The position numbers were made by a program, and so were the translations under genes. Positions 1 to 13,272 of a DNA stretch of 13,272 nucleotides are shown here, in pieces. Source of the stretch: a virus. The notes under the pieces are model-generated. The model did not search any database. It was given only the letters and a program-made list of their open reading frames with translations, and was not told where the DNA came from. Location of the stretch: positions 1-13,272 of the IMG/VR virus record IMGVR_UViG_3300029518_000026; one strand, written 5' to 3'. How positions within the stretch are numbered: the first letter of the stretch is position 1; the number at the start of each line of letters is the position of its first letter.

Positions 1-145
1 CGTAATAGCAGATTGCACAAAATTTTCTTCCCCAACGCCCCAATCTTTGTGCAAAATGTCAATAGACACAATATATAGTAGTTAGTCATTGCTAACATAC
101 CTCTAAGAAAAATCCCTCCCTCTGCACTCGGCAGGGGAGGGGAGT
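1..145. repeat. Left terminal inverted repeat (ITR), 145 bp
   Basis: Bases 1-145 are the reverse complement of 13128-13272. There are 10 mismatches, at left positions 38, 40, 41, 89, 100, 103, 105, 107, 108 and 137. The first 37 nt are identical, and similarity stops abruptly at 146/13127. Confidence 0.95.
104..141 (-). terminator. Intrinsic terminator of the late (structural) operon, embedded in the left ITR
   Basis: The stem has 11 bp: 114-120 pairs with 135-141 and 122-125 pairs with 131-134. T121 is bulged and the loop is 126-130. On the minus strand it is followed by AUUUUUCUU (113-104). It sits 16 nt downstream of the tailspike stop at 157. Confidence 0.6.
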
Positions 146-156
146 GGGTACGGATA

Positions 157-2319
157 TTACCTGCCCGGATAGTGTTTTAAAGTGCCGTTGTGCAAGTATG
201 TTAGTTCGGTATTAGCGGGTGTACCATCAAAGGCATTTGTGATACCTTTTGTAATAAAATTTCCTATAGCATTAGCCCCATCCCCGACAAACTGTACGCC
301 TATCATGGAATTCCCTAAGCCTATTAGCTGTAATCCGTTGACAGCACATGTCAGCCCATTACATTGGTTAAATTGTAACCCAAACAATCCGTTAGGAGTA
401 CAAGCTGCATAGGTATTACTGATGCTGACGCAGCCGGAGGAGGTTTTGTAAAACTGAATACCACCTTGCGAGCACCCATCAAATACGCAGTTCGATATTA
501 AAATATCGTTAAAGCGGTTGTTTCCTGTAGCACTCTCGCTCTCGAACACGACGCCATAACCACCGTTTGCCGATTCGCACGATAGTAAATAAATGTCGCT
601 CCCCGCGCCTATCACATCGAAAGCCGCCGAGTTAAAACTACTCTGTGTTGTATACGTATCACCGTAGGAACATCGCACAAAATACAAGGATGCATTGCCG
701 CCCGCTAGAATTGGGTTTCCTTCGTCGGTGCAGTGATAAGCTCTGAATCTATTGTCTCCGTTATGGTCTACAGACTGCACATAACAACGTTCATACACTG
801 TTGAGACATTTTTAGTGATGTAAAATCCACCCCCCGCATCGTTTGACATCGTCTTAACGAACAGGTGCCGGAAAGTTCCGTAGACTACCCCGTAAATCTT
901 TACAGGGAACTCCGCATCATGATTCTGAATTTCAATATTTTCCAGCGTTATGCAACGAGGAAAATTATTAACTACTCGGCCACTAATGTCTCCGACGATA
1001 ATACTAGAATTGTTATTCAAAATTATGAGCGCGCCGTTTCCTTCGTCAGAATATTCAGGGCCCACCATGGAAAAACCCGATTTGTTGATCGTGATATTTG
1101 TAGACACTGTATATGTCCGATTTGATAAGTGCACTTTATGCAAAGTGTTTATAGCACTCTGTAAATCAGGGAACCAATCTGCGGACCCGTCGGCATACTG
1201 TTTTGCAATAGTGACGGACGAACCCGCCTCAAAAATTTGTTTGTTTTTAGCCATAATAGGCCCGTTGATGGTGATAGTTCCGCCAATTACGCCGTCAATA
1301 TATACCGGAACGTTTTGTGCAGATTCAAAGCCCGACACTTTAAATGTGCCCTGTGGGATGTATAGTGGCAACCCCGAGGATTTTGCGGCGTTGAAAGCGG
1401 AGGTTTCATCAGTAGACCCGTCACCAACGGCTCCGTATGTTTTAACGTTTGCCCAGTTGACGGCTGATTTTAGCGCAGCGTCAATATTTTTTTGTAGTTT
1501 ATTATCCGCGTCCTTCCGGGCCTGTGTCTCATTGTCAATATCCGTCTGAAGCTGGGTGTCGGCGTCCTTCCGGGCCTGTGTCTCATTGTCAATATCCGTC
1601 TGAAGCTGGGTGTCGGCGTCCTTCCGGGCCTGTGTCTCATTGTCAATATCCGTCTGAAGCTGGGTGTCGGCGTCCTTCCGGGCCTGTGTCTCATTGTCAA
1701 TATCCGTCTGAAGCTGGGTGTCGGCGTCCTCTCTGGCCGTTTTTTCCGCGTCAATAGCTGTCTGAAGCTCCGTGTCTGCGCTCTCCCGGGCCGTTTTCTC
1801 TGCGCTCAAGCCCTCATTAAATGCATTGATAAGGTAGTGCAGAACTTCATTTGTGGAGCTGCTAACGCAGTTAGAGCCGGGCACGTAGGCATCACCGGCG
1901 ATCATCGCTCTTGTGACACGTACCAGCGCCCCGTTTACCCAGACAAGATCGTTGACCGCTCTATCCGCTGTCGCGGTGGGGCTATGCCCCTCATCGTTGG
2001 GAGTAATGGCCTTTTTGACATCGGCCCAAAGTTCATCGAAATTGCCAATTTTGGTCCAGAATTCTGTACGGTCCAGAGAAACGCCGGACGGCACCGGCTG
2101 TACAGAAAGATAGGCGTTACCGTTGCTGTCCACAACAACGGTATTAGCCTCGTACTGGCGTGTGATGTCCCATTGGATCGGGTTTGCGTACTTGATCGTG
2201 GCCAGGCTGACGAAATTCGTCAGTTTGGTGTTGAATTCGTTCAGCTCGTCCATAATCCAATCAAGATTGAGATCATGGAAATTGGTGTAGGGCGCTCTGT
2301 GAATAGGATTGATACTCAT
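157..2319 (-). CDS. Tailspike / tail appendage with pectate-lyase-like beta-helix (putative depolymerase; phi29 gp12 position)
   Basis: 720-aa ORF with SD AAGGAGA 8 nt upstream of the ATG. NVKTYGAVGDGSTDETSAFNAA (aa 291-312) matches the typical start of pectate-lyase-superfamily right-handed beta-helix domains. Aa 173-280 form an 18-aa repeat stalk. It is the last gene of the structural module. Confidence 0.8.
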   Translation of the reverse strand: MSINPIHRAPYTNFHDLNLDWIMDELNEFNTKLTNFVSLATIKYANPIQWDITRQYEANTVVVDSNGNAYLSVQPVPSGVSLDRTEFWTKIGNFDELWADVKKAITPNDEGHSPTATADRAVNDLVWVNGALVRVTRAMIAGDAYVPGSNCVSSSTNEVLHYLINAFNEGLSAEKTARESADTELQTAIDAEKTAREDADTQLQTDIDNETQARKDADTQLQTDIDNETQARKDADTQLQTDIDNETQARKDADTQLQTDIDNETQARKDADNKLQKNIDAALKSAVNWANVKTYGAVGDGSTDETSAFNAAKSSGLPLYIPQGTFKVSGFESAQNVPVYIDGVIGGTITINGPIMAKNKQIFEAGSSVTIAKQYADGSADWFPDLQSAINTLHKVHLSNRTYTVSTNITINKSGFSMVGPEYSDEGNGALIILNNNSSIIVGDISGRVVNNFPRCITLENIEIQNHDAEFPVKIYGVVYGTFRHLFVKTMSNDAGGGFYITKNVSTVYERCYVQSVDHNGDNRFRAYHCTDEGNPILAGGNASLYFVRCSYGDTYTTQSSFNSAAFDVIGAGSDIYLLSCESANGGYGVVFESESATGNNRFNDILISNCVFDGCSQGGIQFYKTSSGCVSISNTYAACTPNGLFGLQFNQCNGLTCAVNGLQLIGLGNSMIGVQFVGDGANAIGNFITKGITNAFDGTPANTELTYLHNGTLKHYPGR
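1480..1803 (-). repeat. Six tandem 54-nt (18-aa) repeats inside the tailspike gene; 1508-1730 is nucleotide-perfect (4.1 copies)
   Basis: The period of 54 nt was verified at 1508, 1562, 1616, 1670 and 1724. The encoded unit is NETQARKDADTQLQTDID, flanked by diverged copies (AEKTARESADTELQTAID, AEKTAREDADTQLQTDID, NETQARKDADNKLQKNID). Confidence 0.95.
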
Positions 2320-2332
2320 AAATTACATCTCC

Positions 2333-3022
2333 TTAATATACCAGCAAACAAAAGTTCGCCCGGATGTCCGTAACGATTTTATGGACTGCATTTTCCATTG
2401 CAAGGGACAACTCTTTGGCAATAAGGTCTTGCGGGTCTCGCCCTGCCCGGCCCTTCTCGGTCACGGTGTCTTTGTAGCCGTTGTGCAATTCGGATGTATT
2501 GTTATCGGTGGTTGTCTGATCGGTGGTGGTCGTATCCGTGCCGCTGCTGGTAATGGTGTTTCCAGTTCCAAGGGCCGTTGTACTCTTTTCAGCGGTTTGC
2601 AATGTTCCGCTGTCAAACCCCGTGACGTCCCGGGTGGTGCTGTCGCTGCCGGTATTCTGGCCGGTGGTGGTCAGGTTAGGCGCTCGGGTAGTTGTTCCCT
2701 TCACGCCGTTTGTGCGGTTGATTGTGCCGCCGCTGGTTCCTGCATGGTCGGTGGTTCTGATTCGGTCATCGGATGCCAAAGCATCGTATTTAAGGCCCAG
2801 CGCCTCGGCGTACCGGGTCCAGCTCGGAAGCATGGTTTCAGAATAGACGCCCAGCGCCCTGCGCATCGTGGGGCCATCCGCGTATAATACCTCCAATTCC
2901 AGCGTATCAAGCAGTAATTGATTGCAGACAGCGTCTTTAGAGACATTGTCAGGGACTTCCAAGTCGTCGAACAGTTTCGGGTATCTTGCCAACAGGCCGT
3001 TAAAGCTCAATGTTGCGTGCAT
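2333..3022 (-). CDS. Putative lower collar / head-tail adaptor protein (phi29 gp11 position)
   Basis: 229-aa ORF with SD GGAGGTGA upstream. It overlaps the portal gene end by 23 nt and lies directly after the portal gene, as gp11 does in phi29. The central ~100 aa are Thr/Gly/Ser/Asn-rich. The call rests on synteny only. Confidence 0.4.
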   Translation of the reverse strand: MHATLSFNGLLARYPKLFDDLEVPDNVSKDAVCNQLLLDTLELEVLYADGPTMRRALGVYSETMLPSWTRYAEALGLKYDALASDDRIRTTDHAGTSGGTINRTNGVKGTTTRAPNLTTTGQNTGSDSTTRDVTGFDSGTLQTAEKSTTALGTGNTITSSGTDTTTTDQTTTDNNTSELHNGYKDTVTEKGRAGRDPQDLIAKELSLAMENAVHKIVTDIRANFCLLVY

Positions 3023-3941
3023 CGTTGTTCACCTCCTGCGCTCCAGTATCGGGCGGAAAACGCCAATCAACCCATAAAGTAGATTTGTCAATTCCAAAGA
3101 GCTTGTGTACTCGCTCACACCCATGCTGCAAGCTGTCCAACCATAGCGACGCTTTGGCGGCTGTCTCAACGTTGTTAGAATTGACTTCGTCAGTCAGCAT
3201 CCGCTCTTTCTTGCTTGTGTTGGTGTTGGGGATGCCTACTTCAGTATCGAACAGGGCTTTAATGGTTTTAAGGGCTGTAAGCAATTCGTTGGTAATGAAG
3301 TTCCCTTTGAGGTCAGTTGCAAAATACATCCACGGGGCTTGCCCGGATGCCCCATTCTTGGGCGCTTTGAGCAAAGAGGAATCCACAAACACGGCGGGGT
3401 CACCCTGCATAATCGCGTCAAACATCTTTTTAAAAGATTCTGCACCCGCTTTGTTACCGGACGCAAACACGTAGGCAAGGCGGCTATTGATTAAATTGCT
3501 CTGGATGGTCTGGGCAGCAAGGGCCATCATATCCCCATAATAGGCCACAATATCAACCATACCCCGGTAATCGGGCTGCAAATTGATGATCTCGCACTGC
3601 TTTCCGATCTGTAAATATGGGGACCCTTTAATAAAAGGGTTTGCAATGATGGAGTGTGTCGGATTATAGAAAATGTTGATGCCGGTTAGTCCCATTCGGT
3701 CATATACGAGGCCATAACGGTCTGTATTAAACACCGTAACACCGCCGGAACCGAAAACAAGATACTGCAAGCGGTTACCGGGCCATGTTTCGGGCAATGT
3801 CCACCGTACCATTGACACGGCCTCAAGAAACAGGTATTTACGGAAATAATATGAAAGGCTATTTCCTTTTGTGTGCATTACGGAGGGCGTCACTGGGGAC
3901 ACATGAGCGTTGATTTGCTCATAGCTGTAGGGGGCGCTCAT
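3000..3941 (-). CDS. Portal / upper collar connector protein (phi29 gp10-like)
   Basis: 313 aa. GIPNTNTSKKERMLTDEVNSNNVE...CERVHKLFGI parallels phi29 gp10 [24 protein letters not shown]...CEKINELYGL (from memory). Size is similar (309 aa in phi29). The ATGA start/stop overlap with the upstream M23 gene suggests translational coupling. Confidence 0.85.
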   Translation of the reverse strand: MSAPYSYEQINAHVSPVTPSVMHTKGNSLSYYFRKYLFLEAVSMVRWTLPETWPGNRLQYLVFGSGGVTVFNTDRYGLVYDRMGLTGINIFYNPTHSIIANPFIKGSPYLQIGKQCEIINLQPDYRGMVDIVAYYGDMMALAAQTIQSNLINSRLAYVFASGNKAGAESFKKMFDAIMQGDPAVFVDSSLLKAPKNGASGQAPWMYFATDLKGNFITNELLTALKTIKALFDTEVGIPNTNTSKKERMLTDEVNSNNVETAAKASLWLDSLQHGCERVHKLFGIDKSTLWVDWRFPPDTGAQEVNNDARNIEL

Positions 3942-4477
3942 AACAGACGACCTCCTTTTGCCATTTTAAACAGTAACCACACCGGCAACTTACCGGTGGG
4001 CCACGGCCCGGGACCCGGGCCAGGGCCCCCGCCGGAATCCCATTCTACGTCCCATGTGCCGACCTGATTTGGGATTCTGATAATGCTGGACGGGTCCCTC
4101 AGGTTTCCGGCTGCATCGGCATACTCCCAGTGCGTGTGAATGCCCGTTGCGTTGCCGGTTTTGCCCTGCGTGCCGATAAACTGACCCTTGGAAATGGTGT
4201 CGCCCACGTTCCAAATTTGCGAGGCAAAGTGCGCGGCTCGCCAGGTGGTGCCGTCGGCCATCCGTACTTTGATCATGTTTCCCCACGACTGATCGCCCGA
4301 GGTGCTGCCATTCCAGTGCTGCGCCACGACCACAACGCCCGCCTCGGGCGCGTAGGCTTTGTGATTGCCGTGCACCGTGTCTATGCCCCGGTGGGGACTT
4401 CCGTCCGAGTACGCCGGATAACCGGCTGTCACTCTGATTGGCGACACGTCAGTAATACACTGTTTATAGACTGCCAT
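3938..4477 (-). CDS. Peptidase M23 (LytM-type) peptidoglycan endopeptidase, probably tail-associated lysin (phi29 gp13 C-domain analogue)
   Basis: 179 aa with the HxxxD motif (H29-RGI-D33) and the HxH motif (H114-T-H116). The C-terminus carries a GGGPGPGPGPWP linker followed by KLPVWLLFKMAKGGRLL. SD GGAGGC lies 7 nt upstream. Confidence 0.8.
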   Translation of the reverse strand: MAVYKQCITDVSPIRVTAGYPAYSDGSPHRGIDTVHGNHKAYAPEAGVVVVAQHWNGSTSGDQSWGNMIKVRMADGTTWRAAHFASQIWNVGDTISKGQFIGTQGKTGNATGIHTHWEYADAAGNLRDPSSIIRIPNQVGTWDVEWDSGGGPGPGPGPWPTGKLPVWLLFKMAKGGRLL

Positions 4478-4489
4478 TGTTTACGCCTC

Positions 4490-5893
4490 CTATTCATAGA
4501 AAAAACCATTCTTCATGTAACTTTTGACACTGTCAATTTCTTCTGCTGTTGCTGTTAGCGCAATGTCCGGATCGTCAACCATGATGTACCCCGGGATAGT
4601 GGATATTTGCACACGTTTGCACAAGGGTCTCCCATGGTCGGTATTGTTATCATCCGTAAGAATTTTAAAGCGCGCAACCATATAAGGCACCGAATCAAAA
4701 GCTATTGTGGACCCCGTTGCGCCCTTGCTCGCTACATCTGCATTAGTTGCCTGTGCAGCATTTAAAATACCGTTTCCGACGTCTGAGAAAGAACCCCCGG
4801 ATAATGCTGCCTGGATACCTCCGAACGCTGCCGCAATACCAGTATGCAGCAAGCCTCCGCTGCCCGACGGTATATCAAATGTAATATTGGAAAGTTGAAT
4901 AGGTACCCCAAGTTTGGCGGTTGTCTCGTGTACTAGCTGATTCGAATCGGTAAATATACGTAAGATACTGTCACCGGTGAAAAGGTCAACCATATATTGT
5001 ATAGATAAGGTGACAGCGCCCCACAGTTTAGATGCGTCAAGAGGTATCACTCCAAAGGGCTGCAAGAAGATAGTGTAGTCCGTGTAGGGGGAGGCATTAC
5101 AATACCCTCCGCGGCTTCCCGCTTGAGGGTGCTTCGGGATACTCACGCTCACCGATTTTGTTAATTTGTTATTGTCTTCTCCCAAAATCCAACATGGAAC
5201 GTCTATCGACCACCACCCGACATCTACACTTGAAACAAGCGGTAAATGTGCGGTGATTTTGGCGATGTCAAATGGAAAGTAATTGCAACTTACGATATAT
5301 TGATAGGGATTAAAAAGAACCTTTGTTAAACTGTCGCTAATTTCCGTATTGTCAATACTAAGGTATGACACATCAGTCAGCAATTTTGCAGATAGTTTTT
5401 TGGCATTTGTAGGGGTCATTACTGCATATGTAATAGCCCCAATGGAGTTTGCGGCTTTAGCTATAAACCCAATAACAAAGAATCCCCCGCTAATTGTTTC
5501 CGCAAAGCCACCTTGAAAAGCGGTTGTTACACTTTGCACTTTAGCCGATGCCGGGTAAAGTCCATCTGAAATTGTACCATCATACTGTGCCGACGATCTT
5601 GTGACATACTCCGTACTATTGCCGATCTGGTCACGGTAACTTGCCAGCGTGTCAACAGTCAGCGAGGCCGCCCAGAGACCGTTGGCATATGTCCAATTTT
5701 TAACCCAGTAATACCGGCTGAACGTGGGAAGGTAGCAATAATTGTACCCGGTGGGGTCGTTTTGTGTTGCAATCTTGATCTCGGGGTCAATGATGTTGCA
5801 AGGGGCTTTAAGGTCAATTCCGAACTCCTGCCCACCGTCGGGCCGCTTTGTGCTGTTTGTGCGCTTTGCAAACTGGTAAAAAATAGCTTGCAT
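4490..5893 (-). CDS. Tail knob / distal tube protein (phi29 gp9-like)
   Basis: 467 aa, immediately after the capsid gene. The N-terminal YYWVKNWTY...LTVDTLASY, the Gly/Ala-rich GSGGLLHTGIAAAFGGIQAALSGG and the C-terminal GYIMVDDPDI..TAEEIDSVKSYMKNGFF parallel gp9 features recalled from phi29. SD GGAGG lies 6 nt upstream. Confidence 0.6.
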   Translation of the reverse strand: MQAIFYQFAKRTNSTKRPDGGQEFGIDLKAPCNIIDPEIKIATQNDPTGYNYCYLPTFSRYYWVKNWTYANGLWAASLTVDTLASYRDQIGNSTEYVTRSSAQYDGTISDGLYPASAKVQSVTTAFQGGFAETISGGFFVIGFIAKAANSIGAITYAVMTPTNAKKLSAKLLTDVSYLSIDNTEISDSLTKVLFNPYQYIVSCNYFPFDIAKITAHLPLVSSVDVGWWSIDVPCWILGEDNNKLTKSVSVSIPKHPQAGSRGGYCNASPYTDYTIFLQPFGVIPLDASKLWGAVTLSIQYMVDLFTGDSILRIFTDSNQLVHETTAKLGVPIQLSNITFDIPSGSGGLLHTGIAAAFGGIQAALSGGSFSDVGNGILNAAQATNADVASKGATGSTIAFDSVPYMVARFKILTDDNNTDHGRPLCKRVQISTIPGYIMVDDPDIALTATAEEIDSVKSYMKNGFFYE

Positions 5894-5905
5894 TTTGCAC
5901 CTCCT

Positions 5906-5938
5906 ATAAAAATAACCGGCGGGCAGATGCCCGCCGGT
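5906..5938 (-). terminator. Intrinsic terminator/attenuator after the major capsid gene
   Basis: Perfect 10-bp GC-rich stem (5915-5924 pairs with 5929-5938) with a 4-nt loop. On the minus strand it is followed by UAUUUUUAU (5914-5906). It lies between the MCP stop (5944) and the tail knob SD. Confidence 0.75.
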
Positions 5939-5943
5939 GCCGG

Positions 5944-7218
5944 TCAGGACTTCGATGGGTCATCGTCCTTGTGCGTGGTGGTTTTCAGGGTAGGCGCTTT
6001 TGCCGCATCGGCAGCGCTCGGTGCAGTGACGTCCCCGGAGGTCATCAGGAACAGAACGGCGTTCTCGGTGAAGTCATCGTACCACGACCAACCGTAGTGG
6101 TACCAGAAATTCGTGTACAGGCCGCGGGCGTTCATGGGAGTTGGGACCACGCGGGACAGCTTCGGAGTGTATCCGATTGCATCCCAGTCCAGCAGGCAAC
6201 CGAACACATTGGTGAGCTTCACCGCGGCACTCTTGTAGGATGACCCGCTGGTGTTGGTCACAATAGGTGTCGCAGAGATGGTCTCGCGCTCGTTGATGTT
6301 CTGCCAGAATGTGACCTGTTCGGCGTCGCGGTATTTCAGCATGTTATCGTGGAACACCTCGGGAATCACGCGGGCGTCGATCTGGCTCTGCGTGCCACTG
6401 TACAGGTAGAGGTGCTGACGATCATACGGGGTGTGGCGCATGATGTTGTACGTCGTGTCACCGATCTTCCAGTTCTGATGCCAGTTGATGGTACGTTCCT
6501 TCATCAGGCGGGAAATGTCATTGATACGACCATAGGCGTATTTGGCAAACCCCGGGAAGTTTGCTTCTTTGTACACGTCCTGCACGGTCAGTTTTGTGCC
6601 CTGCTGGGCGTTGTACTCATCAAGCAGATAAATGACGCTTTTCGGGCTGGCCGTAGTCATGCCGGTCAGATGATTCGCCATCAGGTTATTGGCGAGGTTC
6701 CGTCTGTCTGCCTCGATCTGGTTCGACAGATGCAGCACGAACGAGGACCAGAATTGCGCCAGTTCCTCGGGGCCTTTGAACGCCGCTTCCATCTGGGTAT
6801 CAGCCTGCGTATACACGCGGCTGTAATTGGTCTGGCCATAGTAGTTAGTCTGAAGGACTTTAGGCTTGTGAACTTCGTACATATCCACGCTTTGGCCGTC
6901 CGTAAGTGCCCACGCCTTATCGGTGACGGGGTCAGTATCGCAGAAATTGATCTTCCGCACATGGTTCGACCAGTCGTCGCCCGTGACCTGCAAACGCTTC
7001 ATGGGGGCATCATAGGGACGGACGGCAAAGATAGTGCGGCCCAACACCTGGCTGATCGCTTTGGTGTAATTGTCGGGGCCGGTCTTCATCGTGGCCTGTG
7101 CAACAGAAACGAAACTGAATGTGTCCACGATGGGCGTCGTCGGTTCCTGACCGGTGGCCAGTTTGTTAATCTCTGTCAGAATTGCGGCAATGTCCGCAAA
7201 ATCCATACCAGCGGGCAT
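5944..7218 (-). CDS. Major capsid protein (phi29 gp8-like, HK97 fold)
   Basis: 424 aa. NARGLYTNFWYHYGWSWYDDFTENAVLFLMTSGDV parallels phi29 gp8 [33 protein letters not shown] (from memory). It follows the scaffold gene. Confidence 0.9.
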   Translation of the reverse strand: MPAGMDFADIAAILTEINKLATGQEPTTPIVDTFSFVSVAQATMKTGPDNYTKAISQVLGRTIFAVRPYDAPMKRLQVTGDDWSNHVRKINFCDTDPVTDKAWALTDGQSVDMYEVHKPKVLQTNYYGQTNYSRVYTQADTQMEAAFKGPEELAQFWSSFVLHLSNQIEADRRNLANNLMANHLTGMTTASPKSVIYLLDEYNAQQGTKLTVQDVYKEANFPGFAKYAYGRINDISRLMKERTINWHQNWKIGDTTYNIMRHTPYDRQHLYLYSGTQSQIDARVIPEVFHDNMLKYRDAEQVTFWQNINERETISATPIVTNTSGSSYKSAAVKLTNVFGCLLDWDAIGYTPKLSRVVPTPMNARGLYTNFWYHYGWSWYDDFTENAVLFLMTSGDVTAPSAADAAKAPTLKTTTHKDDDPSKS

Positions 7219-7219
7219 A

Positions 7220-7627
7220 TTACTTCACTTCCTTTCCATAAGTCGGGTCGATGATTCGGGCCGTCACCGTTGTGGCATCTGCCGCCGGCTGCTGCTGGAT
7301 GCCAAGGCCCAGCGCGTTTGCCTGCAACGTCTGGGTCATAGTCTGCATTGCTTGTGCGCTGGTCTGCTGGCCCTGCAAAATCTGCTGCAACAGGGTTTCA
7401 AGGCCATCATACTGCGGCGTGGGCTGCGGCACGGGCTGTGGCGTGGGCTGCGGCACGGGCTGCGGTGCGGGCTGCGGTGCGGGCTGCGGCGCGGGCTGCG
7501 GCGCGGGCTGCGGGACGGGCTGCGGGACGGGCTGCGGCGCGGGCTGCGGCACGGGCTGCTCCATAGCTTCGATCTCTGCTTTGGTGTATCCGGCCATAGC
7601 GAGGGCCGCTTTTTCACTGATTTTCAA
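7220..7627 (-). CDS. Putative scaffolding protein with (PxPQ)12 repeat (phi29 gp7 position)
   Basis: 135 aa, directly upstream of the MCP gene. The Q-rich C-terminal half is predicted helical. The start is TTG at 7627, with GGAGG 9 nt upstream. The alternative ATG at 7597 has no SD. Confidence 0.6.
   Translation of the reverse strand: MKISEKAALAMAGYTKAEIEAMEQPVPQPAPQPVPQPVPQPAPQPAPQPAPQPAPQPVPQPTPQPVPQPTPQYDGLETLLQQILQGQQTSAQAMQTMTQTLQANALGLGIQQQPAADATTVTARIIDPTYGKEVK
7412..7555 (-). repeat. 12 tandem copies of a 12-nt unit (gggctgcggnnc on plus) encoding PxPQ (x = V/A/T)
   Basis: Read directly from the sequence. It encodes aa 25-72 of the scaffold ORF (PVPQPAPQPVPQ...PTPQ). Confidence 0.95.
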
Positions 7628-7847
7628 CTTTGGTCGCCTCCATTACAACGTATGTGTCATGTGTCAGGCATTTAATGACCTGATCTTTATCGCCTTTGGA
7701 GAGAGGACCCACCGCGCAACACTGCCGCGTGTGGGCGACGTCTGCCCAGTCGCTATAGTAGCCGATGCTCAAACGAGTGCAAAGGTCAGCCAGCAGAAAA
7801 GCACGCTCGTTTGTGATCGACTGGGCAAAAATGATATAACAACCCAT
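7614..7847 (-). CDS. Hypothetical 77-aa protein (Cys/His-containing), second gene of the late operon
   Basis: The ORF fills the whole gap between neighbouring genes on the coding strand. GAAGGAAAG lies upstream of the ATG. The 3' end overlaps the scaffold start by 14 nt. No recognisable motif. Confidence 0.5.
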   Translation of the reverse strand: MGCYIIFAQSITNERAFLLADLCTRLSIGYYSDWADVAHTRQCCAVGPLSKGDKDQVIKCLTHDTYVVMEATKVENQ

Positions 7848-7849
7848 AG

Positions 7850-8008
7850 TTAGCTTTCCTTCTTGATGTCGTCCAGGGCGAGCCGCATCTCGGTAATAGC
7901 CGCAGTGTTCTCCTTGACAACGGTATTACACTGATACCACATCAGCAAAAAAGCGGCGATAGGAAACCCCACGTTAGAAATAGCTTGAATCACAGTATTA
8001 GCATCCAT
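7850..8008 (-). CDS. Small membrane protein, YvrJ-like (holin-like candidate); not in the supplied ORF track
   Basis: Hand translation gives MDANTVIQAISNVGFPIAAFLLMWYQCNTVVKENTAAITEMRLALDDIKKES (52 aa). SD GGAGGTG lies 5 nt upstream of the ATG at 8008, and the stop TAA is at 7850-7852. The N-V-G-F-P-I plus hydrophobic stretch resembles the YvrJ family motif as I recall it. Confidence 0.6.
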   Translation of the reverse strand: MDANTVIQAISNVGFPIAAFLLMWYQCNTVVKENTAAITEMRLALDDIKKES

Positions 8009-8042
8009 TTGAGCACCTCCATATTAAATATAAATACAAGTA

Positions 8043-8112
8043 AATCCCAGGTTCTTGCGCTGGCTGACGCTTGCCCGCCCCTTCTGGGGGCTGCCTGTGG
8101 GCACCTGGGATT
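8043..8112 (-). ncRNA. Candidate structured RNA element (70 nt, multi-branch, closed by a 10-bp helix) in the ATPase/late-operon intergenic region
   Basis: 8043-8052 (aatcccaggt) pairs perfectly with 8103-8112 (acctgggatt). The 50-nt GC-rich interior can form several short hairpins, e.g. GCCCC-CAGAA-GGGGC. On the minus strand it is followed by the U-rich UUUACUUGUAUUUAUAUUU. Function is unknown. Confidence 0.3.
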
Positions 8113-8118
8113 AACTTT

Positions 8119-8147
8119 AATATATATCACCCGTATAAAAAAGTCAA
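8119..8147 (-). promoter_or_regulatory. Candidate sigma-A/sigma-70-type promoter for the late operon
   Basis: On the minus strand: TTGACT (8147-8142, overlapping the ATPase stop), a 17-nt spacer, then TATATT (8124-8119). The predicted transcription start falls at about the first base of the 8043-8112 helix. Confidence 0.4.
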
Positions 8148-9205
8148 GTACCGCAATACTCACGAAAGAAAATTTCATCCGAATAACGCTCAAATTCAAT
8201 CTGACGCTGTAAGTACGCGGGCCAGATATACCCATACGCGGCCCTAAATCGTTTCCGCTCATAATCGCCGGTGCCGTATGTGGGCATCTCGCCAGACCGA
8301 TGCCGACACACATAGTAGAGGGGTTTACTCTTATGCTCATAGATGCAGCACCGCCCAATTTGAACAAGGGGGTAGTATTCCCGGAGGGGCCGAGATACAA
8401 CAAGACTTTTCTCCTCGGCGCTGTACTGGTTTTCAATAGCGGACCTGTAAAAATCTGTACCGGTCATGGACCTATAGAGGGCCGTATTGGCTTTCTCTTT
8501 GGCAATAGGGCTGTCCACTAGATCAATCAAAAGAATCCCTTTATCGGCCAACAGCTTGACGCGCTCTTTTTTGCCGATCATCTTCTCGACGGTATCGGTG
8601 ATCTCCCATTGCATATAATAGGGGTTGGCCATGCCCACCGCGTTCGACATACACAACAGCGTCAAGGGCTTTTGCCCTTGTAGTTCTCGGTTACGGTTGA
8701 CTGTCTCATAAATATTAGCGAGGCCCACGCCCTCACCGCGACGATAGTAGTCGGTCTCTTCTTTCTGGTATTCGTCCAAAATAATTATATTGGTGTGAGG
8801 ACTTGAAAAACCACGGGTTCGGGCCAAGGTGACGACACTTCCCACGACGCCCGACATCTTGGCCGGTTTTATGGGAGAACCTGTATCAGTGAAGGCCCCC
8901 GCGTTACCCACTTCATACAAGCCCGCTATTTTCGGCAGTTTAAATGGGGCATAATGTGTTTGCAAATCATCATTCAACGGAGACCACGGCCACATACTGG
9001 GCGATGCGCAAATAAGTTCCGCCTGCTGCGGCGTGCGGCGCAGATATAGAAATTCTTCTTCGGTCTGATGCACGTGCTTCAATGCTCCATAAGTCTTGCC
9101 GGTACCACGTCCACCCCATATAAAAATAATAGGTGCTCCCGTTGACAAAATGCCATCCTTTTCGGAAAAATTCGGCCATCCTTCGTCAGTGTATAGTTTA
9201 ATCAT
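8144..9205 (-). CDS. DNA encapsidation (packaging) ATPase, phi29 gp16-like
   Basis: 353 aa. Walker A is GGRGTGKT and Walker B is IIILDEY. FIWGGRGTGKTYG...EEFLYLRR and LLCMSNAVGMANPYY parallel phi29 gp16 VIGARGIGKSYA...EQFIYVRR and CICLSNAVSVVNPYF (from memory). The TGATG start/stop overlap with the polymerase gene and GGAGG 7 nt upstream support the start. Confidence 0.9.
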   Translation of the reverse strand: MIKLYTDEGWPNFSEKDGILSTGAPIIFIWGGRGTGKTYGALKHVHQTEEEFLYLRRTPQQAELICASPSMWPWSPLNDDLQTHYAPFKLPKIAGLYEVGNAGAFTDTGSPIKPAKMSGVVGSVVTLARTRGFSSPHTNIIILDEYQKEETDYYRRGEGVGLANIYETVNRNRELQGQKPLTLLCMSNAVGMANPYYMQWEITDTVEKMIGKKERVKLLADKGILLIDLVDSPIAKEKANTALYRSMTGTDFYRSAIENQYSAEEKSLVVSRPLREYYPLVQIGRCCIYEHKSKPLYYVCRHRSGEMPTYGTGDYERKRFRAAYGYIWPAYLQRQIEFERYSDEIFFREYCGT

Positions 9206-11295
9206 CAGACAACCTCCATAATCTTGTACCCTAATATCTTTGCGTATTCGTCGGTAATTCCCAATGTGTACGTATTATCACAAATACACAGGTTTCTTGT
9301 TATATGTACCGTATGCCCGTCAACCACAAAATCGGGCACATTGGGCCGGTCATTATAAATAACCTGATTTCCGGCGGCAAGACAGAACGTAAAGCCGGGC
9401 TTGAATACCTCAAAACCACCCCACAGGGCAAGCTCCAAACCGCCTTTCCGCTTGCTAACTCCCGCTATTGTAGTAGTGATCGGCCCGCCTTTTTTATAGG
9501 TAGTCGCGTATTTCTTAGCGCCCCACGTCATAAACTCCGCGTAGCTGCGCTCTTGCTCGTATACACCCATATAATGAATATTGCCTTTTGGGTCTGTAGC
9601 GCAAGCACCGTTGTCTTTCGCAAGCTGTGTCACAGATTTGTTAAACTCCACTAAATCAATATTACCCATGTACTTGACGCTGTCAGTGTCGCAGTACACA
9701 CCATTCTTGCCCGCGGCCCATTGCGCTATTTTTAGGCGCTTGCGGGTGTGAGCCGTTGTCCATACGCCCCATTGATAGGGCAAAAACAAATGGGGGTTGT
9801 GGTCGTTATAACTGCCCTCTGGGTCGTCGGTGCACTCGCTCCAAAGATTGTCGGGGTCATCCTCGTCAAAAAGTGTGTCCAGCTGCAAGGGGTCTTGTGC
9901 GGTCATGCCGTAGTAGCTATTAAGATCGCCCTTGGCCTTGACATAATACAAATCTTGACCGGGAACACCTTTAAGGGATGTTTTGCCGGTGTAACTCTCT
10001 TTTACACAATCCGTCAAGGGCTTTGGCAGTTTGCCATAATCGGACGTGTACAGGTCCATAACGTTAAGAGCGTCCCAATCATACTCTTTGGCAATGATTC
10101 TAAAATCTATATCGGTTATGGTGATCTCCAACTGTTCAGCAGACAACAGACGGCCATTGTCGTTTATGTATCCTTCACAGTGCCGGACCTTTGCAAGGGG
10201 GATATATGGGAACCCCCACCACTTAAAGCGCTGGCGCAAACCTTTTACTTGCAAGCGCATCAAGCAAGCCTTGCCGTGCCTCATACACTGCATTAACCTC
10301 TCTACGGTGGCCGGTTCCTGCCTAAATGGTGTCATAGGAAAATAACATTCGCATTGAACGGCAGGATAGGCGCTCGACATATCCACGGAACCGACGTTTT
10401 CCAAATGGAGACCTACATAATACCGATTCGCATGGGTGTCACCGCCCCGGAACGCCTCCCGCAACATTTGGTATAGGTCCCACGACGGCAAAAGGCGCTT
10501 GACCCGTTTAATGCCCCATTTATACATTGCTTCGCGTGCCATTCGTCGGACGTATCCGGTGCGCGTTAGTGGTAGAGTATACAGATCGTCGCCGTCTCGG
10601 TTCATCTCGATTAACAGGCACTCCACAATACACCGAACATCGTTAATACAATACGCCAATTCTGTAGACGTTAAAGACGTCCATGGGTACCGAACTTTGG
10701 AATAATCAAGTGCCCCGGTCAATTTGGCATGCGGGGCACCCAGCTGTTTGCCCCATGCATCAAGGGACAAATTGCTGTGCCGCATACTGCATCGGTACTC
10801 AATAGCGCGATTGTCGCATTTTAAGACCCTACGGGGTTTGCTGGCGAACACATCACCCGGGCCAAAATCCAGAATACCCGACAAATATTGAAATTCATGT
10901 GCAAGATTGTGAACGTACATACACAGAAACCAGTCACCTTGAGGCCCGCTGCTCGCTTGCAAAAAGTCGCTGATTGCCCCCGTAAAGTTCAGCCACTCGT
11001 CCCACGTCCTACCAATAATGGTAATATCCAGACCGAGTTGACACTGCCAAATATACATTATGGTATGTGGATTGTCGTCCGCATCTACACATACTCGGCT
11101 AGTCTCAATATCAAACGCACACGGCATATTCACATATAAGCGCTTCTTGTTCGTTTTGCGTTTCTTGCCTTTTGTGTGTTTGCGGTCTAGATGCTCCATA
11201 AGCCACGGGACAGGGTTGTAATTACAAGCCTCCGCCGAAACCTCCGCGCAGGTCGGCGGAACTGCTGCCGTCGCTGTAGTCCCATTCTTTACCAT
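9205..11295 (-). CDS. Protein-primed family-B DNA polymerase
   Basis: Motifs, numbered on the 700-aa track ORF: Exo I FDIETS (aa 65-70), Exo III YCIND (219-223), motif A DMSSAYP (309-315), motif B KGDLNSYYG (459-467), motif C YCDTDS (538-543) and KKY (598-600). The start is uncertain. ATG at 11295 has GGTGAGG 6 nt upstream. GTG at 11307 and ATG at 11199 (no SD) are alternatives. Confidence 0.9.
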   Translation of the reverse strand: MVKNGTTATAAVPPTCAEVSAEACNYNPVPWLMEHLDRKHTKGKKRKTNKKRLYVNMPCAFDIETSRVCVDADDNPHTIMYIWQCQLGLDITIIGRTWDEWLNFTGAISDFLQASSGPQGDWFLCMYVHNLAHEFQYLSGILDFGPGDVFASKPRRVLKCDNRAIEYRCSMRHSNLSLDAWGKQLGAPHAKLTGALDYSKVRYPWTSLTSTELAYCINDVRCIVECLLIEMNRDGDDLYTLPLTRTGYVRRMAREAMYKWGIKRVKRLLPSWDLYQMLREAFRGGDTHANRYYVGLHLENVGSVDMSSAYPAVQCECYFPMTPFRQEPATVERLMQCMRHGKACLMRLQVKGLRQRFKWWGFPYIPLAKVRHCEGYINDNGRLLSAEQLEITITDIDFRIIAKEYDWDALNVMDLYTSDYGKLPKPLTDCVKESYTGKTSLKGVPGQDLYYVKAKGDLNSYYGMTAQDPLQLDTLFDEDDPDNLWSECTDDPEGSYNDHNPHLFLPYQWGVWTTAHTRKRLKIAQWAAGKNGVYCDTDSVKYMGNIDLVEFNKSVTQLAKDNGACATDPKGNIHYMGVYEQERSYAEFMTWGAKKYATTYKKGGPITTTIAGVSKRKGGLELALWGGFEVFKPGFTFCLAAGNQVIYNDRPNVPDFVVDGHTVHITRNLCICDNTYTLGITDEYAKILGYKIMEVV

Positions 11296-11821
11296 AGTTG
11301 ACCTCACCTTGCTGCCACTTTACAAAATCGTCAATACTGACATTGTAGCCGCCTTTCTCGCGCCAGTACATAACCGGCTGGTCGGACGGATAGTAGTATA
11401 CGCCCGATGCTTTTACGATCTCCCACCATTCCGACAAGGCCGTGTACTGATCCTCGGGCACGTCGGCTACATCAATACCGCTAACTTTCATTTTTTGCGT
11501 AAATTCTTCACGGGCACCGCCAACGGTGGAACCTTTAGAACGCACAAAACGCGCTACATCTGCGAGCGCCTGTTCCAATGCTTTACGGTCTCCGCGCATT
11601 GCCTTTAGGGTGGGAAAACCTCCGGCAAATTCTTTATAAACGTCGCTTGTGCCGCTGATGGGGTCCGCGGATAGGCGCTTAATACGCTTCTGCGCAATGT
11701 CGCGCAGTCGGGTGTATTCTTTGCGCATCTGATTGTCTGGCCACGATTCCAACGCATAGGGTGTATATAGCTCGGCACTGTATTTAAGGGTTGCACTTGC
11801 TTTAGCGGCGCCTACTGCCAT
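11222..11821 (-). CDS. Candidate terminal protein (replication primer)
   Basis: 199 aa, immediately upstream of and overlapping the polymerase gene, as in phi29 gene 3/gene 2. The N-terminal basic helix KEYTRLRDIAQKRIKRL is reminiscent of phi29 TP AEYARLVKNTKAKIART. The C-terminus is rich in Ser/Tyr. The genome has ITRs and a protein-primed polymerase, so a TP is required. Confidence 0.45.
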   Translation of the reverse strand: MAVGAAKASATLKYSAELYTPYALESWPDNQMRKEYTRLRDIAQKRIKRLSADPISGTSDVYKEFAGGFPTLKAMRGDRKALEQALADVARFVRSKGSTVGGAREEFTQKMKVSGIDVADVPEDQYTALSEWWEIVKASGVYYYPSDQPVMYWREKGGYNVSIDDFVKWQQGEVNYGKEWDYSDGSSSADLRGGFGGGL

Positions 11822-12032
11822 GCTTCTCGCGCTCCTTTCTATCTAAGATCATATAATACCAGTCCAGAGGGTCCGCTTCAATGCCCAATCCGTTGAAAAT
11901 GATTTTGGCCCATTCAGAGCGGAAAAACTTGACATCATTAGTTGTAACTCCACTATATACAATGGCCGTTGCGAGGTAGATCAAAGAATCGTCGCAGTTA
12001 AGCAAGGATACTCTGTTATCTTTCCTTTTCAT
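11802..12032 (-). CDS. Hypothetical 76-aa early protein with basic C-terminus
   Basis: The start was chosen at ATG 12032 because AGGAGG lies 4 nt upstream. The track's upstream start at 12077 lies inside the terminator hairpin and has no SD. The gene overlaps the next gene by 20 nt. No recognisable motif. Confidence 0.5.
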   Translation of the reverse strand: MKRKDNRVSLLNCDDSLIYLATAIVYSGVTTNDVKFFRSEWAKIIFNGLGIEADPLDWYYMILDRKEREKHGSRRR

Positions 12033-12042
12033 GGGGCCTCCT

Positions 12043-12077
12043 ATAATAAATATGGCCGCCGCATGTGCGGCGGCCAT
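12043..12077 (-). terminator. Intrinsic terminator/attenuator after the SSB-like gene
   Basis: 11-bp stem ATGGCCGCCGC/GCGGCGGCCAT (12067-12077 pairs with 12052-12062) with loop ACAT, followed on the minus strand by AUUUAUUAU. It begins 9 nt after the stop at 12086. Confidence 0.65.
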
Positions 12078-12085
12078 TGGCTAAA

Positions 12086-12523
12086 TCAAACCAGATTCAA
12101 AGACAAAACCTGGCCCTTTTTGGTGCTGATCAACACAGGTTTGATCAGCACAGGTTCCGTCCACGTATCAGGATTGCCGAGCAGCGTAAACATCCGCTTC
12201 AAAGACTGATAGACGCCCACGGAGACGCAGCTATAGGACTGCCCGTCCGCGGTAATGAGGACAATGCGGGGTGCAATCGTCTTCCCCTCGGGGACATCGT
12301 CCTTACTGACCTCCACGCACTCCACGGACACATGAACCAGCGACAGCACCTCATTGACGTGCTCCTTTAGCTTGTTGGCGGGGTTGCTCGTTGCATTGTA
12401 GAATGCAACTGCGGCAGAGCGGTCAGAGAGGTTCATATCGGTGTACCCAAGACCGGTATTCATCACATCGGACACCGTCATAGCTGCACCACTGTTTTCG
12501 GACTTCATCATTGCTTCGGACAT
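12086..12523 (-). CDS. Putative single-stranded DNA-binding protein (phage SSB-like)
   Basis: 145 aa with SD AGGAG 7 nt upstream. The C-terminal pattern RIVLITADGQSYSCVSVGVYQSLKRMFTLLGNPDTW..PVLIKPV..TKKGQVLSLNL resembles Firmicutes phage SSB family proteins as I recall them. It sits in the replication module and is followed by a terminator, consistent with high expression. Confidence 0.45.
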   Translation of the reverse strand: MSEAMMKSENSGAAMTVSDVMNTGLGYTDMNLSDRSAAVAFYNATSNPANKLKEHVNEVLSLVHVSVECVEVSKDDVPEGKTIAPRIVLITADGQSYSCVSVGVYQSLKRMFTLLGNPDTWTEPVLIKPVLISTKKGQVLSLNLV

Positions 12524-12561
12524 AATATAGCTCCTTTCATTATGTGCCCTGTCATTATCAA

Positions 12562-12601
12562 TACCGGGCGGGCAGTCCCGGTAGACGGCCCGGAGGCCGT
12601 T
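12562..12601 (-). other. Two adjacent GC-rich hairpins between early genes
   Basis: Hairpin A has a 7-bp stem (12562-12568 pairs with 12577-12583) and an 8-nt loop. Hairpin B has a 6-bp stem (12585-12590 pairs with 12595-12600) and loop cgga. Neither has a clean U-tract on the minus strand. Confidence 0.5.
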
Positions 12602-12606
12602 TCGAC

Positions 12607-12873
12607 TTAATTCTTGTTATATAAGGAGTACATAGCCTGTACCCCGTCACGCACATGGGCCGCACCCTGATACATAAGATCGGCTGACAAGCAAGTGCCT
12701 TTAAAACCCTCAAGGGTGTGTACTTGCTCGTCGCAATGGATGAGAGCTTGCTTATAACCGGCCAACCATGCCCGATTGTTTGCGGCTCGGATAGCGTCCT
12801 TCTGATCCTCGTACTCGCAGCACGTCAACGTGCCGTTGGGGTGAATTTCGATGATGAATTTACGCATTTCCAT
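12607..12873 (-). CDS. Hypothetical 88-aa early protein
   Basis: The start was moved to ATG 12873 (MEMRKFIIE...) because GGGAG lies 9 nt upstream. The upstream part of the track ORF overlaps a better-supported small ORF in another frame. No recognisable motif. Confidence 0.55.
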   Translation of the reverse strand: MEMRKFIIEIHPNGTLTCCEYEDQKDAIRAANNRAWLAGYKQALIHCDEQVHTLEGFKGTCLSADLMYQGAAHVRDGVQAMYSLYNKN

Positions 12874-12889
12874 TTGTGGAATCTCCCTT

Positions 12890-13036
12890 CTACCATCCAA
12901 ACATAATCTTTGCAAGACTGACAAGCACCTTAATACTGTCGATAATGTCATCTTCGGACAGTTGTTCCAAATTCTTACCATCAAGAGTAATGTTATCATC
13001 GGTTAAAGTGATTTTAATCATGACTTCTTTTTTCAT
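12890..13036 (-). CDS. Hypothetical 48-aa acidic early protein; not in the supplied ORF track
   Basis: Hand translation gives MKKEVMIKITLTDDNITLDGKNLEQLSEDDIIDSIKVLVSLAKIMFGW. SD AGGGGGG lies 6 nt upstream of the ATG at 13036, and the stop TAG is at 12890-12892. It is the first ORF downstream of the early promoters. Confidence 0.5.
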   Translation of the reverse strand: MKKEVMIKITLTDDNITLDGKNLEQLSEDDIIDSIKVLVSLAKIMFGW

Positions 13037-13072
13037 TGGAAACCCCCCTTTCTTGTTTCTTTCATTGTCTAT

Positions 13073-13118
13073 ATTATACCATACACTAAATTGTATATGT
13101 TGCTATTTACATTGTAAA
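13073..13118 (-). promoter_or_regulatory. Tandem early promoters just inside the right ITR
   Basis: On the minus strand, the first promoter reads TTTACA (13118-13113), a 17-nt spacer, then TACAAT (13095-13090). Downstream is an extended -10, TGgTATAAT (13081-13073). Both lie 35-80 nt upstream of the first ORF. Confidence 0.55.
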
Positions 13119-13127
13119 AATTGCTGT

Positions 13128-13272
13128 ACTCCCCTACCCTGCCGAGTGCAGAGGGAGGGATTTTCTTAATAGATATGTTAGCATTGACTAACTACTATAT
13201 ATTGTGTCTATTGACATTTTGCACAAAGATTTAGCCGTTGGGGAAGAAAATTTTGTGCAATCTGCTATTACG
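13128..13272. repeat. Right terminal inverted repeat (ITR), 145 bp
   Basis: Reverse complement of 1-145 (135/145 identical). Confidence 0.95.

Follow-up and report, generated by a model that had tools for sequence, protein, structure and literature searches.

Is the 13,272-nt stretch deposited as IMG/VR virus record IMGVR_UViG_3300029518_000026 (positions 1 to 13,272, the whole of which was analysed and is hereafter referred to as the window) a complete phage genome, and if so, of what kind of phage? The original prediction, made from the letters alone, took it for the complete genome of a very small phi29-like podophage that replicates by protein priming, and this proposal was borne out. We are highly confident that the window is the essentially complete linear double-stranded DNA genome of a virulent phi29-like podophage from the human gut, lacking only 6 nt (GGGACA) at each end, and that it belongs to a large, uncultured and unclassified genus-level clade. 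The evidence consists of domain matches of the encoded proteins, a structural match of one of them to the phi29 tail knob gp9, inverted terminal repeats (ITRs), termini found fused to sequencing adapters, and collinearity with gene blocks of phi29 and with the Amedibacillus phage AD70P2.

Ends of the genome

An inverted repeat frames the window, with arms at positions 1-145 and 13128-13272 (145 nt, 93% complementary). The outermost 39 nt, read directly, are identical between the two arms. A search of IMG/VR with the terminal 37-mer revealed 27 contigs in which it is located 0-6 nt from the contig end. The extra bases beyond the window ends in these contigs number up to six and are always GGGACA. 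At least 12 independent assemblies (e.g. L014, L017, L019, L082, L085, L094 and L104) terminate at this sequence. In two assemblies an Illumina adapter is joined directly to the phage terminus: the adapter end ...GATCT is followed by GGACA in L082, and by A and then CGTAAT in L033. Such fusions are expected if adapters were ligated onto natural DNA termini, and the window ends are therefore real. The right ITR is supported both by its partner arm and by the extended assemblies.

ENA assembly ERZ28596417 (L104; sample SAMEA3708646; 13,278 bp) represents the same genome, 100% identical outside one repeat array. It bears TGGGACA at both ends, the extra T being probably an adapter overhang. Since other assemblies contain six more nucleotides (GGGACA) at each end, the true genome is about 13,284 bp long and its ITR is 151 bp long and begins with GGG. 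This terminal reiteration would permit sliding-back initiation of replication. Thus, the 145-bp inverted repeat described initially is present, while the statement that the window starts and ends exactly at it has to be corrected by 6 nt on each side.

No assembly extending past the ends by more than 6-7 nt was found. The more than 100 related contigs are all at most 14.3 kb long, save one of 18 kb (IMGVR_UViG_3300045988_033841), which was considered as a longer genome and rejected, being a fold-back (palindromic) chimera of a genome from the same clade. The 18-kb contig, together with phi29-like phage-plasmids known in Enterococcus (PMC11476376), might be taken to mean that the ITRs and the completeness are an assembly artefact and that the window is a fragment of a larger element, a linear plasmid or a phage-plasmid. 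We assign this possibility a practically negligible probability, given the chimeric nature of that contig, the size limit of all other related contigs and the GGGACA end shared by many independent assemblies, two of them adapter-fused. In addition, no integrase, repressor, plasmid, partition or toxin-antitoxin genes were detected among the open reading frames (ORFs) of the window by inspection of translations and by Pfam and PHROG scans.

Gene complement

Sixteen genes were counted in the window, in agreement with the initial estimate of about 16, and all of them lie on the minus strand, as do all genes and RNA elements described below. The GC content is about 50%, and no tRNA genes were revealed by a scan of the window. 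The hallmark set of phi29-like phages comprises p8, p9, p10, p11, p2 and p16 (Evseev et al. 2024, PMC11476376). The window was found to encode a major capsid protein (MCP), portal, tail knob, packaging ATPase and family B DNA polymerase (PolB) of this type on a linear genome with ITRs.

Most of these assignments follow from family matches. The gp8-like MCP (5944-7218, 424 aa) matches Phi29_MCP (PF25622, 61.2 bits at a cut-off of 27, E 1.5e-16). The gp10-like portal, or upper collar connector (3000-3941, 313 aa), matches Phage_connector (PF05352, E 9e-16, 58.5 bits at a cut-off of 25.6) and PHROG 2038 (E 4.7e-26). The gp16-like DNA packaging ATPase (8144-9205, 353 aa) matches Podovirus_Gp16 (PF05894, E 5.6e-14, 52.7 bits at a cut-off of 25) and PHROG 2150 (E 2.6e-24), with Walker A GRGTGKT and Walker B IIILDE motifs legible in its sequence. 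The protein-primed PolB (9205-11199) is 664 aa long when started from the ATG at 11199, as in the gene call in L104; the ORF is open up to a GTG at 11307. The ORF 9205-11307 matches DNA_pol_B_2 (PF03175, 34.3 bits at a cut-off of 25.8) and PHROG 1907 (E 1e-40), and its sole PDB sequence match is phi29 DNA polymerase (1XHX, E 1.5e-7). The motifs known from the phi29 enzyme as Exo I, Exo III, A, B, C and KxY can be recognized in the translation. The phi29-type single-stranded DNA-binding protein (SSB; 12086-12523, 145 aa) matches Phi29_Phage_SSB (PF17427, 34.8 bits at a cut-off of 25) and PHROG 6243 (E 6.5e-18).

The tail knob is a different case. The 467-aa protein encoded at 4490-5893 has no Pfam, PHROG or PDB sequence match, and a 63-sequence profile of its family likewise matches nothing in the PDB. 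Repeating the homologue search with the family profile returned nothing but the same close relatives, a PHROG scan of the 63 family members gave one weak match, and hhalign comparison of the family with phi29 gp9 was weak (E 0.003-0.15). The family is large, comprising 5,377 clusters at 50% identity, and in one NCBI metagenome-assembled genome (MAG) the protein is annotated as 'major tail protein'. An AlphaFold2 (AF2) model built from an alignment of 139 diverse members had a predicted local distance difference test (pLDDT) score of 90.6 and a predicted TM-score (pTM) of 0.81. When this model was compared with the PDB using Foldseek, the only significant matches were seven chains of phi29 gp9 (5FB5/5FB4/5FEI; E 4.8e-11, probability 1.0, TMq 0.53). 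The modelled fold thus confirms the protein as a phi29 gp9-type tail knob, an assignment settled by structure comparison alone. Residues 342-377 form a disordered Gly/Ala-rich loop at the place of the membrane-penetrating loop of gp9.

The other genes include an M23 metallopeptidase (3938-4477, 179 aa; PF01551, E 2.6e-14) with legible HxxxD and HxH motifs. Its PDB matches include, among other M23 enzymes, 3CSQ, the phi29 morphogenesis protein gp13 (E 1e-4). The protein is probably a tail-associated lysin, the counterpart of the gp13 M23 domain, and may also serve as endolysin. A 720-aa gp12-like tailspike, or pre-neck appendage, with a pectate-lyase-like domain is encoded at 157-2319; it matches PF12708, PHROG 4775 (pre-neck appendage) and PHROG 2234 (tail spike). 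At 1508-1730 its gene contains a tandem array of a 54-bp unit (18 aa, DADTQLQTDIDNETQARK) in 4.1 perfect copies. A candidate for the gp11-like lower collar (2333-3022, 229 aa) follows the portal gene as gp11 follows gp10 in phi29.

Two further candidates were named from gene position. The scaffold candidate (7220-7627, 135 aa) is encoded directly upstream of the MCP gene, like phi29 gene 7. It contains a 12-nt repeat (7412-7559; 12.3 copies) encoding (PQPx)n, with 12 units in the window and 3 to 20 units among relatives, whose proteins range from 107 to 167 aa. The terminal-protein candidate (11222-11821, 199 aa; 4,426 members in its cluster at 90% identity) is encoded immediately upstream of PolB, like phi29 gene 3, and its gene occupies the same place in AD70P2 and in MT835998, a related gut phage. 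Of the gene set proposed initially, the MCP, portal, ATPase, PolB, SSB, M23 protein and tailspike are thus substantiated by family matches and the knob by structure, while the scaffold and the terminal protein keep the status of positional candidates.

The other ORFs are small. A 52-aa holin candidate (7850-8008; PHROG 4898, E 1.8e-6) is the product of the first gene of the late block. It is followed by a 77-aa ORF (7614-7847; 886-member cluster) that is kept across the clade and has a 34% identical homologue in MT835998. At the early end, a 76-aa ORF (11802-12032; gene call in L104, 1,909-member cluster) takes the place of phi29 gene 4, while an 88-aa ORF (12607-12873; gene call in L104, 289-member cluster) and a 48-aa ORF (12890-13036; ORF list and gene call in L104) precede the SSB gene. 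The holin gene, the single-strand layout and two conserved RNA elements had been overlooked in the original prediction.

Relatives, classification and host

The phi29 proteins gp8, gp9, gp10 and gp16, a protein-primed PolB, the gp5-type SSB, the gp13 M23 domain and a gp12-like appendage all have counterparts in the window, and the phi29 gene blocks 5-4-3-2 and 7-8-9-10-11-12 are kept. Compared to phi29, the M23 gene is inserted after gene 9 and the ATPase gene is moved beside the polymerase gene. The window is also smaller (13.3 kb versus 19.3 kb), its ITRs are longer (145-151 bp versus 6 bp), and its genes lie on one strand, in contrast to the divergent early and late operons of phi29. It lacks the head fibre, gp15 endolysin, p6 and p4 homologues and the Rfam packaging RNA (pRNA) of phi29, and contains a predicted hammerhead ribozyme. 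Neither a pRNA gene nor divergent early and late operons, which are traits of the Salasmaviridae, were found in the window.

Close relatives are abundant. GenBank entry MT836263.1 ('Bacteriophage sp.', unverified; human faeces, Mexico) is 86.5% identical over 79% of the window. Its faecal source and the ENA sample SAMEA3708646 of the same genome as the window point to the human gut as the origin. At least 189 IMG/VR contigs carry an MCP relative, and the best 80 of them are 91-94% identical. Protein clusters at 90% identity contain 289-4,426 members, all of which are labelled 'hypothetical'. The best whole-genome match covers 98.6% of the window at 89.7% identity (about 88% overall), while most relatives stand at 70-82%. 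Since no genome at least 95% similar was present among those fetched, the window is a separate species-level genome; nor was any such near-identical genome found in a described genus. It is, thus, a new species-level genome of an already known kind, from an unclassified but heavily sampled gut clade. MT836263 and the IMG/VR relatives (e.g. IMGVR_UViG_3300045988_071318) share with the window the gene order, the ITR sequence, the hammerhead and the leader RNA. They differ from it in that the C-terminal part of the tailspike is replaced in MT836263 and repeat copy numbers vary among relatives. In a survey of 2,115 phi29-like genomes, Evseev et al. 2024 (PMC11476376) described many 12-14 kb clusters from the human gut. 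One of them, MCP cluster 13, includes 'Virus sp. ctxAI8' (13,382 bp, 49.8% GC, human metagenome), for which Clostridia were suggested as host. Judging by size, GC content and source, the clade of the window is probably the same group.

According to PolB, the nearest cultured relatives are Amedibacillus phages AD70P2 and AD70P3 (12.2-12.3 kb, 35% identity), followed by Clostridium phage HM2, Salmonella Astrithrvirus (11.6 kb), Acinetobacter phage Phanie (11.9 kb) and Vibrio phage K58 g2 (10.4 kb). Collinearity between AD70P2 and the window extends across the entire genome, and AD70P2 likewise has ITRs and nearly all genes on one strand. The identity between the two is family-level at best: 35% for PolB, 32% for the portal, 29% for the MCP, 27% for the ATPase and 21% for the knob. 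AD70P2 differs by its 26.7% GC content and by a CHAP/SH3 endolysin gene at the early end in place of the M23 gene between knob and portal. The NCBI lineage of AD70P2 is Guelinviridae, and its collinearity with the window extends over proteins just 21-35% identical; the Amedibacillus phages form an MCP cluster separate from the Clostridium Guelinviridae (PMC11476376). In MT835998.1, a related 14-kb gut phage with a 46% identical PolB, the structural genes occupy one strand and the ATPase, polymerase and terminal-protein genes the other. This two-strand layout indicates that the single-strand layout is not fixed in the wider group.

The sizes of these cultured phages bear on the claim that the window lies near the lower size limit of tailed phages, which has to be abandoned. 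The genomes of K58 g2 (10.4 kb), Astrithrvirus (11.6), Phanie (11.9) and AD70P2/P3 (12.2-12.3) are all smaller. For the same reason, and because hundreds of near relatives are public and more than 2,000 phi29-like genomes have been catalogued (PMC11476376), it is very unlikely that the window is an exceptional near-minimal tailed phage representing a new lineage, even though its 13.3 kb and 16 genes are well under the 19.3 kb of phi29 and its clade is unclassified, MT836263 being deposited simply as 'Bacteriophage sp.'.

Small size raises another possibility, namely that the window is a helper-dependent, satellite-like phage in the manner of Phanie, whose virions need the tail of another phage. 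Helper dependence is known among small phi29-like phages that infect Gram-negative bacteria (PMC11476376, citing Pourcel et al.), and the window PolB shares 31-35% identity with its Phanie and Astrid counterparts. Indeed, Astrithrvirus (astrithr/Astrid), Phanie and K58 g2 resemble the window in being very small (10.4-11.9 kb), in having ITRs, theirs being tens of bp long, and in PolB identity (31-35%). They are unlike it in having a split knob, no tailspike, Gram-negative hosts, a CHAP lysin and the portal before the MCP (PMC11476376). The gp9-type knob of the window is one full-length protein and a 720-aa tailspike is encoded as well, whereas the Astrid/Phanie group combines a split knob with the absence of tail-fibre and tail-spike genes (PMC11476376, section 2.6). 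The layout of the window agrees with that of the autonomous Amedibacillus phage AD70P2. We therefore give helper dependence little credence and retain the reading of the window as the genome of a complete phi29-like podophage.

Several observations weigh against parts of this reading. The lower collar assignment of the 229-aa protein is probable; its support is weak and partly transitive, comprising a collinear hhalign match to phi29 gp11 (E 3e-4, probability 39%) and the match of a 33% identical homologue from MT835998 to PHROG 3225 'adaptor Ad4' (E 4.5e-5), a label that phi29 gp11 also carries. The 199-aa terminal-protein candidate showed no homology in a PDB search, in hhalign comparison with phi29 gp3, or in Pfam and PHROG scans of three homologues. 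No structural likeness to phi29 gp3 was seen for it, its single-sequence AF2 model (pLDDT 39) being unusable. Direct PDB sequence searches with the 229-aa and 199-aa proteins returned nothing useful. The ITRs and the constant genome ends lend indirect support to a terminal protein bound at the 5′ ends. The copy number of the tailspike array is uncertain: tailspike cluster members of 666, 684, 702 and 720 aa differ by 18-aa steps, while the array in ERZ28596417 differs by 8 nt and is frameshifted, so the array either varies by unit or is unreliably assembled. Promoters and terminators are consensus matches, and the number of terminators does not exceed the shuffled expectation. The predicted hammerhead scores 0.8 bit under the Rfam gathering threshold (GA 37), and its copy in MT836263 scores 32.2 bits; the low score is accounted for by a U3/A8 core variant and an inserted U. 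Finally, relatives were found in just two GTDB MAGs (L108 and L109), the bins of which disagree, one being Prevotella and the other Collinsella. Since each MAG contig is a whole phage genome, binning is uninformative on the host, and the placement is probably a binning artefact that calls for care in assigning hosts. The strong GGAGG ribosome-binding sites, the sigma-A-like promoters and the fact that the nearest cultured relative infects a member of the Bacillota suggest a Gram-positive host. Amedibacillus is a member of the Erysipelotrichaceae.

RNA elements and proposed life cycle

A predicted type II hammerhead ribozyme with a U3-A8 core is located at 12545-12606, between the 88-aa ORF and the SSB gene, with the predicted cut at 12584/12583. 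The Rfam model Hammerhead_II (RF02276) matches 12543-12607 on the gene strand with 36.2 bits (E 2.3e-4 over the window, 6e-6 over the local region). Three stems surround the conserved core: stem II (GUC/GAC), a 6-bp stem III including A15.1-U16.1 and a 7-bp stem I. GAAA and the GUC cleavage triplet, with an H17 cleavage site, are present. The core reads UUGAUAA and has one additional U ahead of stem II. The loop of stem I (UGCCC) pairs with the 3′ tail (GGGCA) in a 5-bp pseudoknot.

The hammerhead is conserved far above the flanking ORF. It was found in 47 of the 47 loci having the SSB gene together with upstream DNA, one of them with a stem II mismatch, and in at least 119 IMG/VR contigs, where it always lies 0.15-1.4 kb from one end. 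The core pair is U3-A8 in 34 of the 47 loci, C3-G8 in seven, U3-G8 in four and C3/A8 in one. Among the 27 distinct variants, 17 have UA, six CG, three UG and one another combination; the stem I closing pair is UA in 24 and CG in three, and GUC and GAAA are invariant. Paired cells amount to 95.8% across these variants, compared to 31-42% when the partners are slid. An extra base between A9 and G10.1 is present in most copies and is a U (G in one variant). The C3-G8/U3-G8/U3-A8 covariation, the switching stem I pair and the pseudoknot support the assignment of the element as a type II hammerhead.

Like the type II hammerheads of bacteria and phages reported by Perreault et al. 2011 (PMC3088659), the element has GAAA and a CUGAUGA-type core, the GUC triplet, A15.1-U16.1, a short open stem II, a 4-5 bp pseudoknot between stem I loop and 3′ tail, and an intergenic site in a phage. 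It differs from them in that its host is a phi29-like phage and that C-G, U-G, U-A and one C/A combination all occur in a single clade. The natural occurrence, covariation and activity of U3-A8 hammerheads are already known. A literature search revealed no paper mentioning hammerheads together with phi29-like phages, and no hammerhead was detected in AD70P2, MT835998, Astrid or HM2. Cleavage would likely detach the message for the two leading small ORFs from that for the replication genes, and would leave a 5′-OH end and a hairpin just before the SSB ribosome-binding site.

The second element lies between the ATPase and holin genes, in a gap of 135 nt immediately downstream of the ATPase gene. 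A putative late promoter (8147-8119; TTGACT-17-TATATT) is followed, about 7 nt past it, by a 70-nt structured leader RNA (8112-8043 in the direction of transcription, within the region 8043-8147). The leader (z = -3.2) consists of a 10-bp closing stem and a branched 50-nt core, after which come a U-rich tract and the holin ribosome-binding site. When about 88 loci were compared, the core proved near invariant while the promoter spacer varies, and three positions of the closing stem have compensatory changes. A similar layout of promoter, leader and U-tract is present in MT835998 (1014-1165, plus strand) and AD70P2 (6390-6506, minus strand); no clear counterpart emerged when five more distant phi29-like genomes were searched by a crude promoter-plus-fold scan.

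The leader matches no Rfam family, pRNA included. As had been proposed, no pRNA gene is recognizable: the pRNA model RF00044 gave no match, either in the window (E up to 1) or in the gap 7980-8170 (E up to 10). By the pattern of its conservation, the leader is a selected RNA structure of no known family. Candidate roles are a late-gene terminator or antiterminator, a put-like element, a 5′ stabiliser and a packaging-RNA analogue. The boldest of these, in which the leader, made from its own promoter, would take the role of phi29 pRNA in those phi29-like phages that are not Salasmaviridae and in which a packaging RNA is not known, is in our view improbable; loop-loop complementarity of the pRNA type was not seen in the leader. 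In a milder version, the leader could be a new cis-acting terminator or antiterminator RNA that times late genes in minimal phages without a p4-like activator.

Other putative transcription signals were identified by consensus. An early promoter region (13073-13118) with TTTACA-17-TACAAT followed by TGgTATAAT is located just inside the right ITR. Strong GC-rich, terminator-like hairpins with T-tracts directly follow the SSB gene (12052-12077; 11-bp stem with 9 GC pairs, then ATTTATTATA) and the MCP gene (5915-5938; 10-bp stem with 9 GC pairs, then TATTTTTATA). They resemble attenuators behind the two products required in largest quantity. The post-SSB hairpin overlaps an ATG at 12077, and the downstream ORF therefore more likely starts at 12032 (76 aa).

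These features suggest the following life cycle. Replication would be primed at both ITR ends by the candidate 199-aa terminal protein acting with the family B polymerase and the phi29-type SSB, and the terminal GGG may allow sliding-back. All 16 genes would be transcribed leftward from promoters just inside the right ITR, the hammerhead would cleave the early message behind the two leading small ORFs and ahead of the SSB gene, and the hairpins behind the SSB and MCP genes would attenuate downstream expression. A second sigma-A-type promoter with the structured leader would open the late block, comprising holin, scaffold, MCP, gp9 knob, M23 lysin, portal, lower collar and tailspike, and the gp16-type ATPase would package the DNA. 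Protein priming by the 199-aa protein, sliding-back, the transcript architecture, ribozyme activity and host type are parts of this scheme that we infer.

As a genome, the window is one more species-level member of a common uncultured clade, unsurprising in itself and useful for taxonomy as a compact reference with defined termini. The true termini of the clade (GGGACA...) could be derived from adapter-fused assemblies. The part most worth following up is the two RNA elements. The predicted hammerhead is fixed in the early transcript region of every member examined, with a path from C3-G8 through U3-G8 to U3-A8 within one clade, and the hammerheads of this clade offer natural variants with which to test how much change the core tolerates, as well as mRNA processing by a ribozyme in a phage of 16 genes. 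The leader RNA, positioned at the early/late boundary, makes late-gene timing, or packaging without a known pRNA, experimentally approachable.

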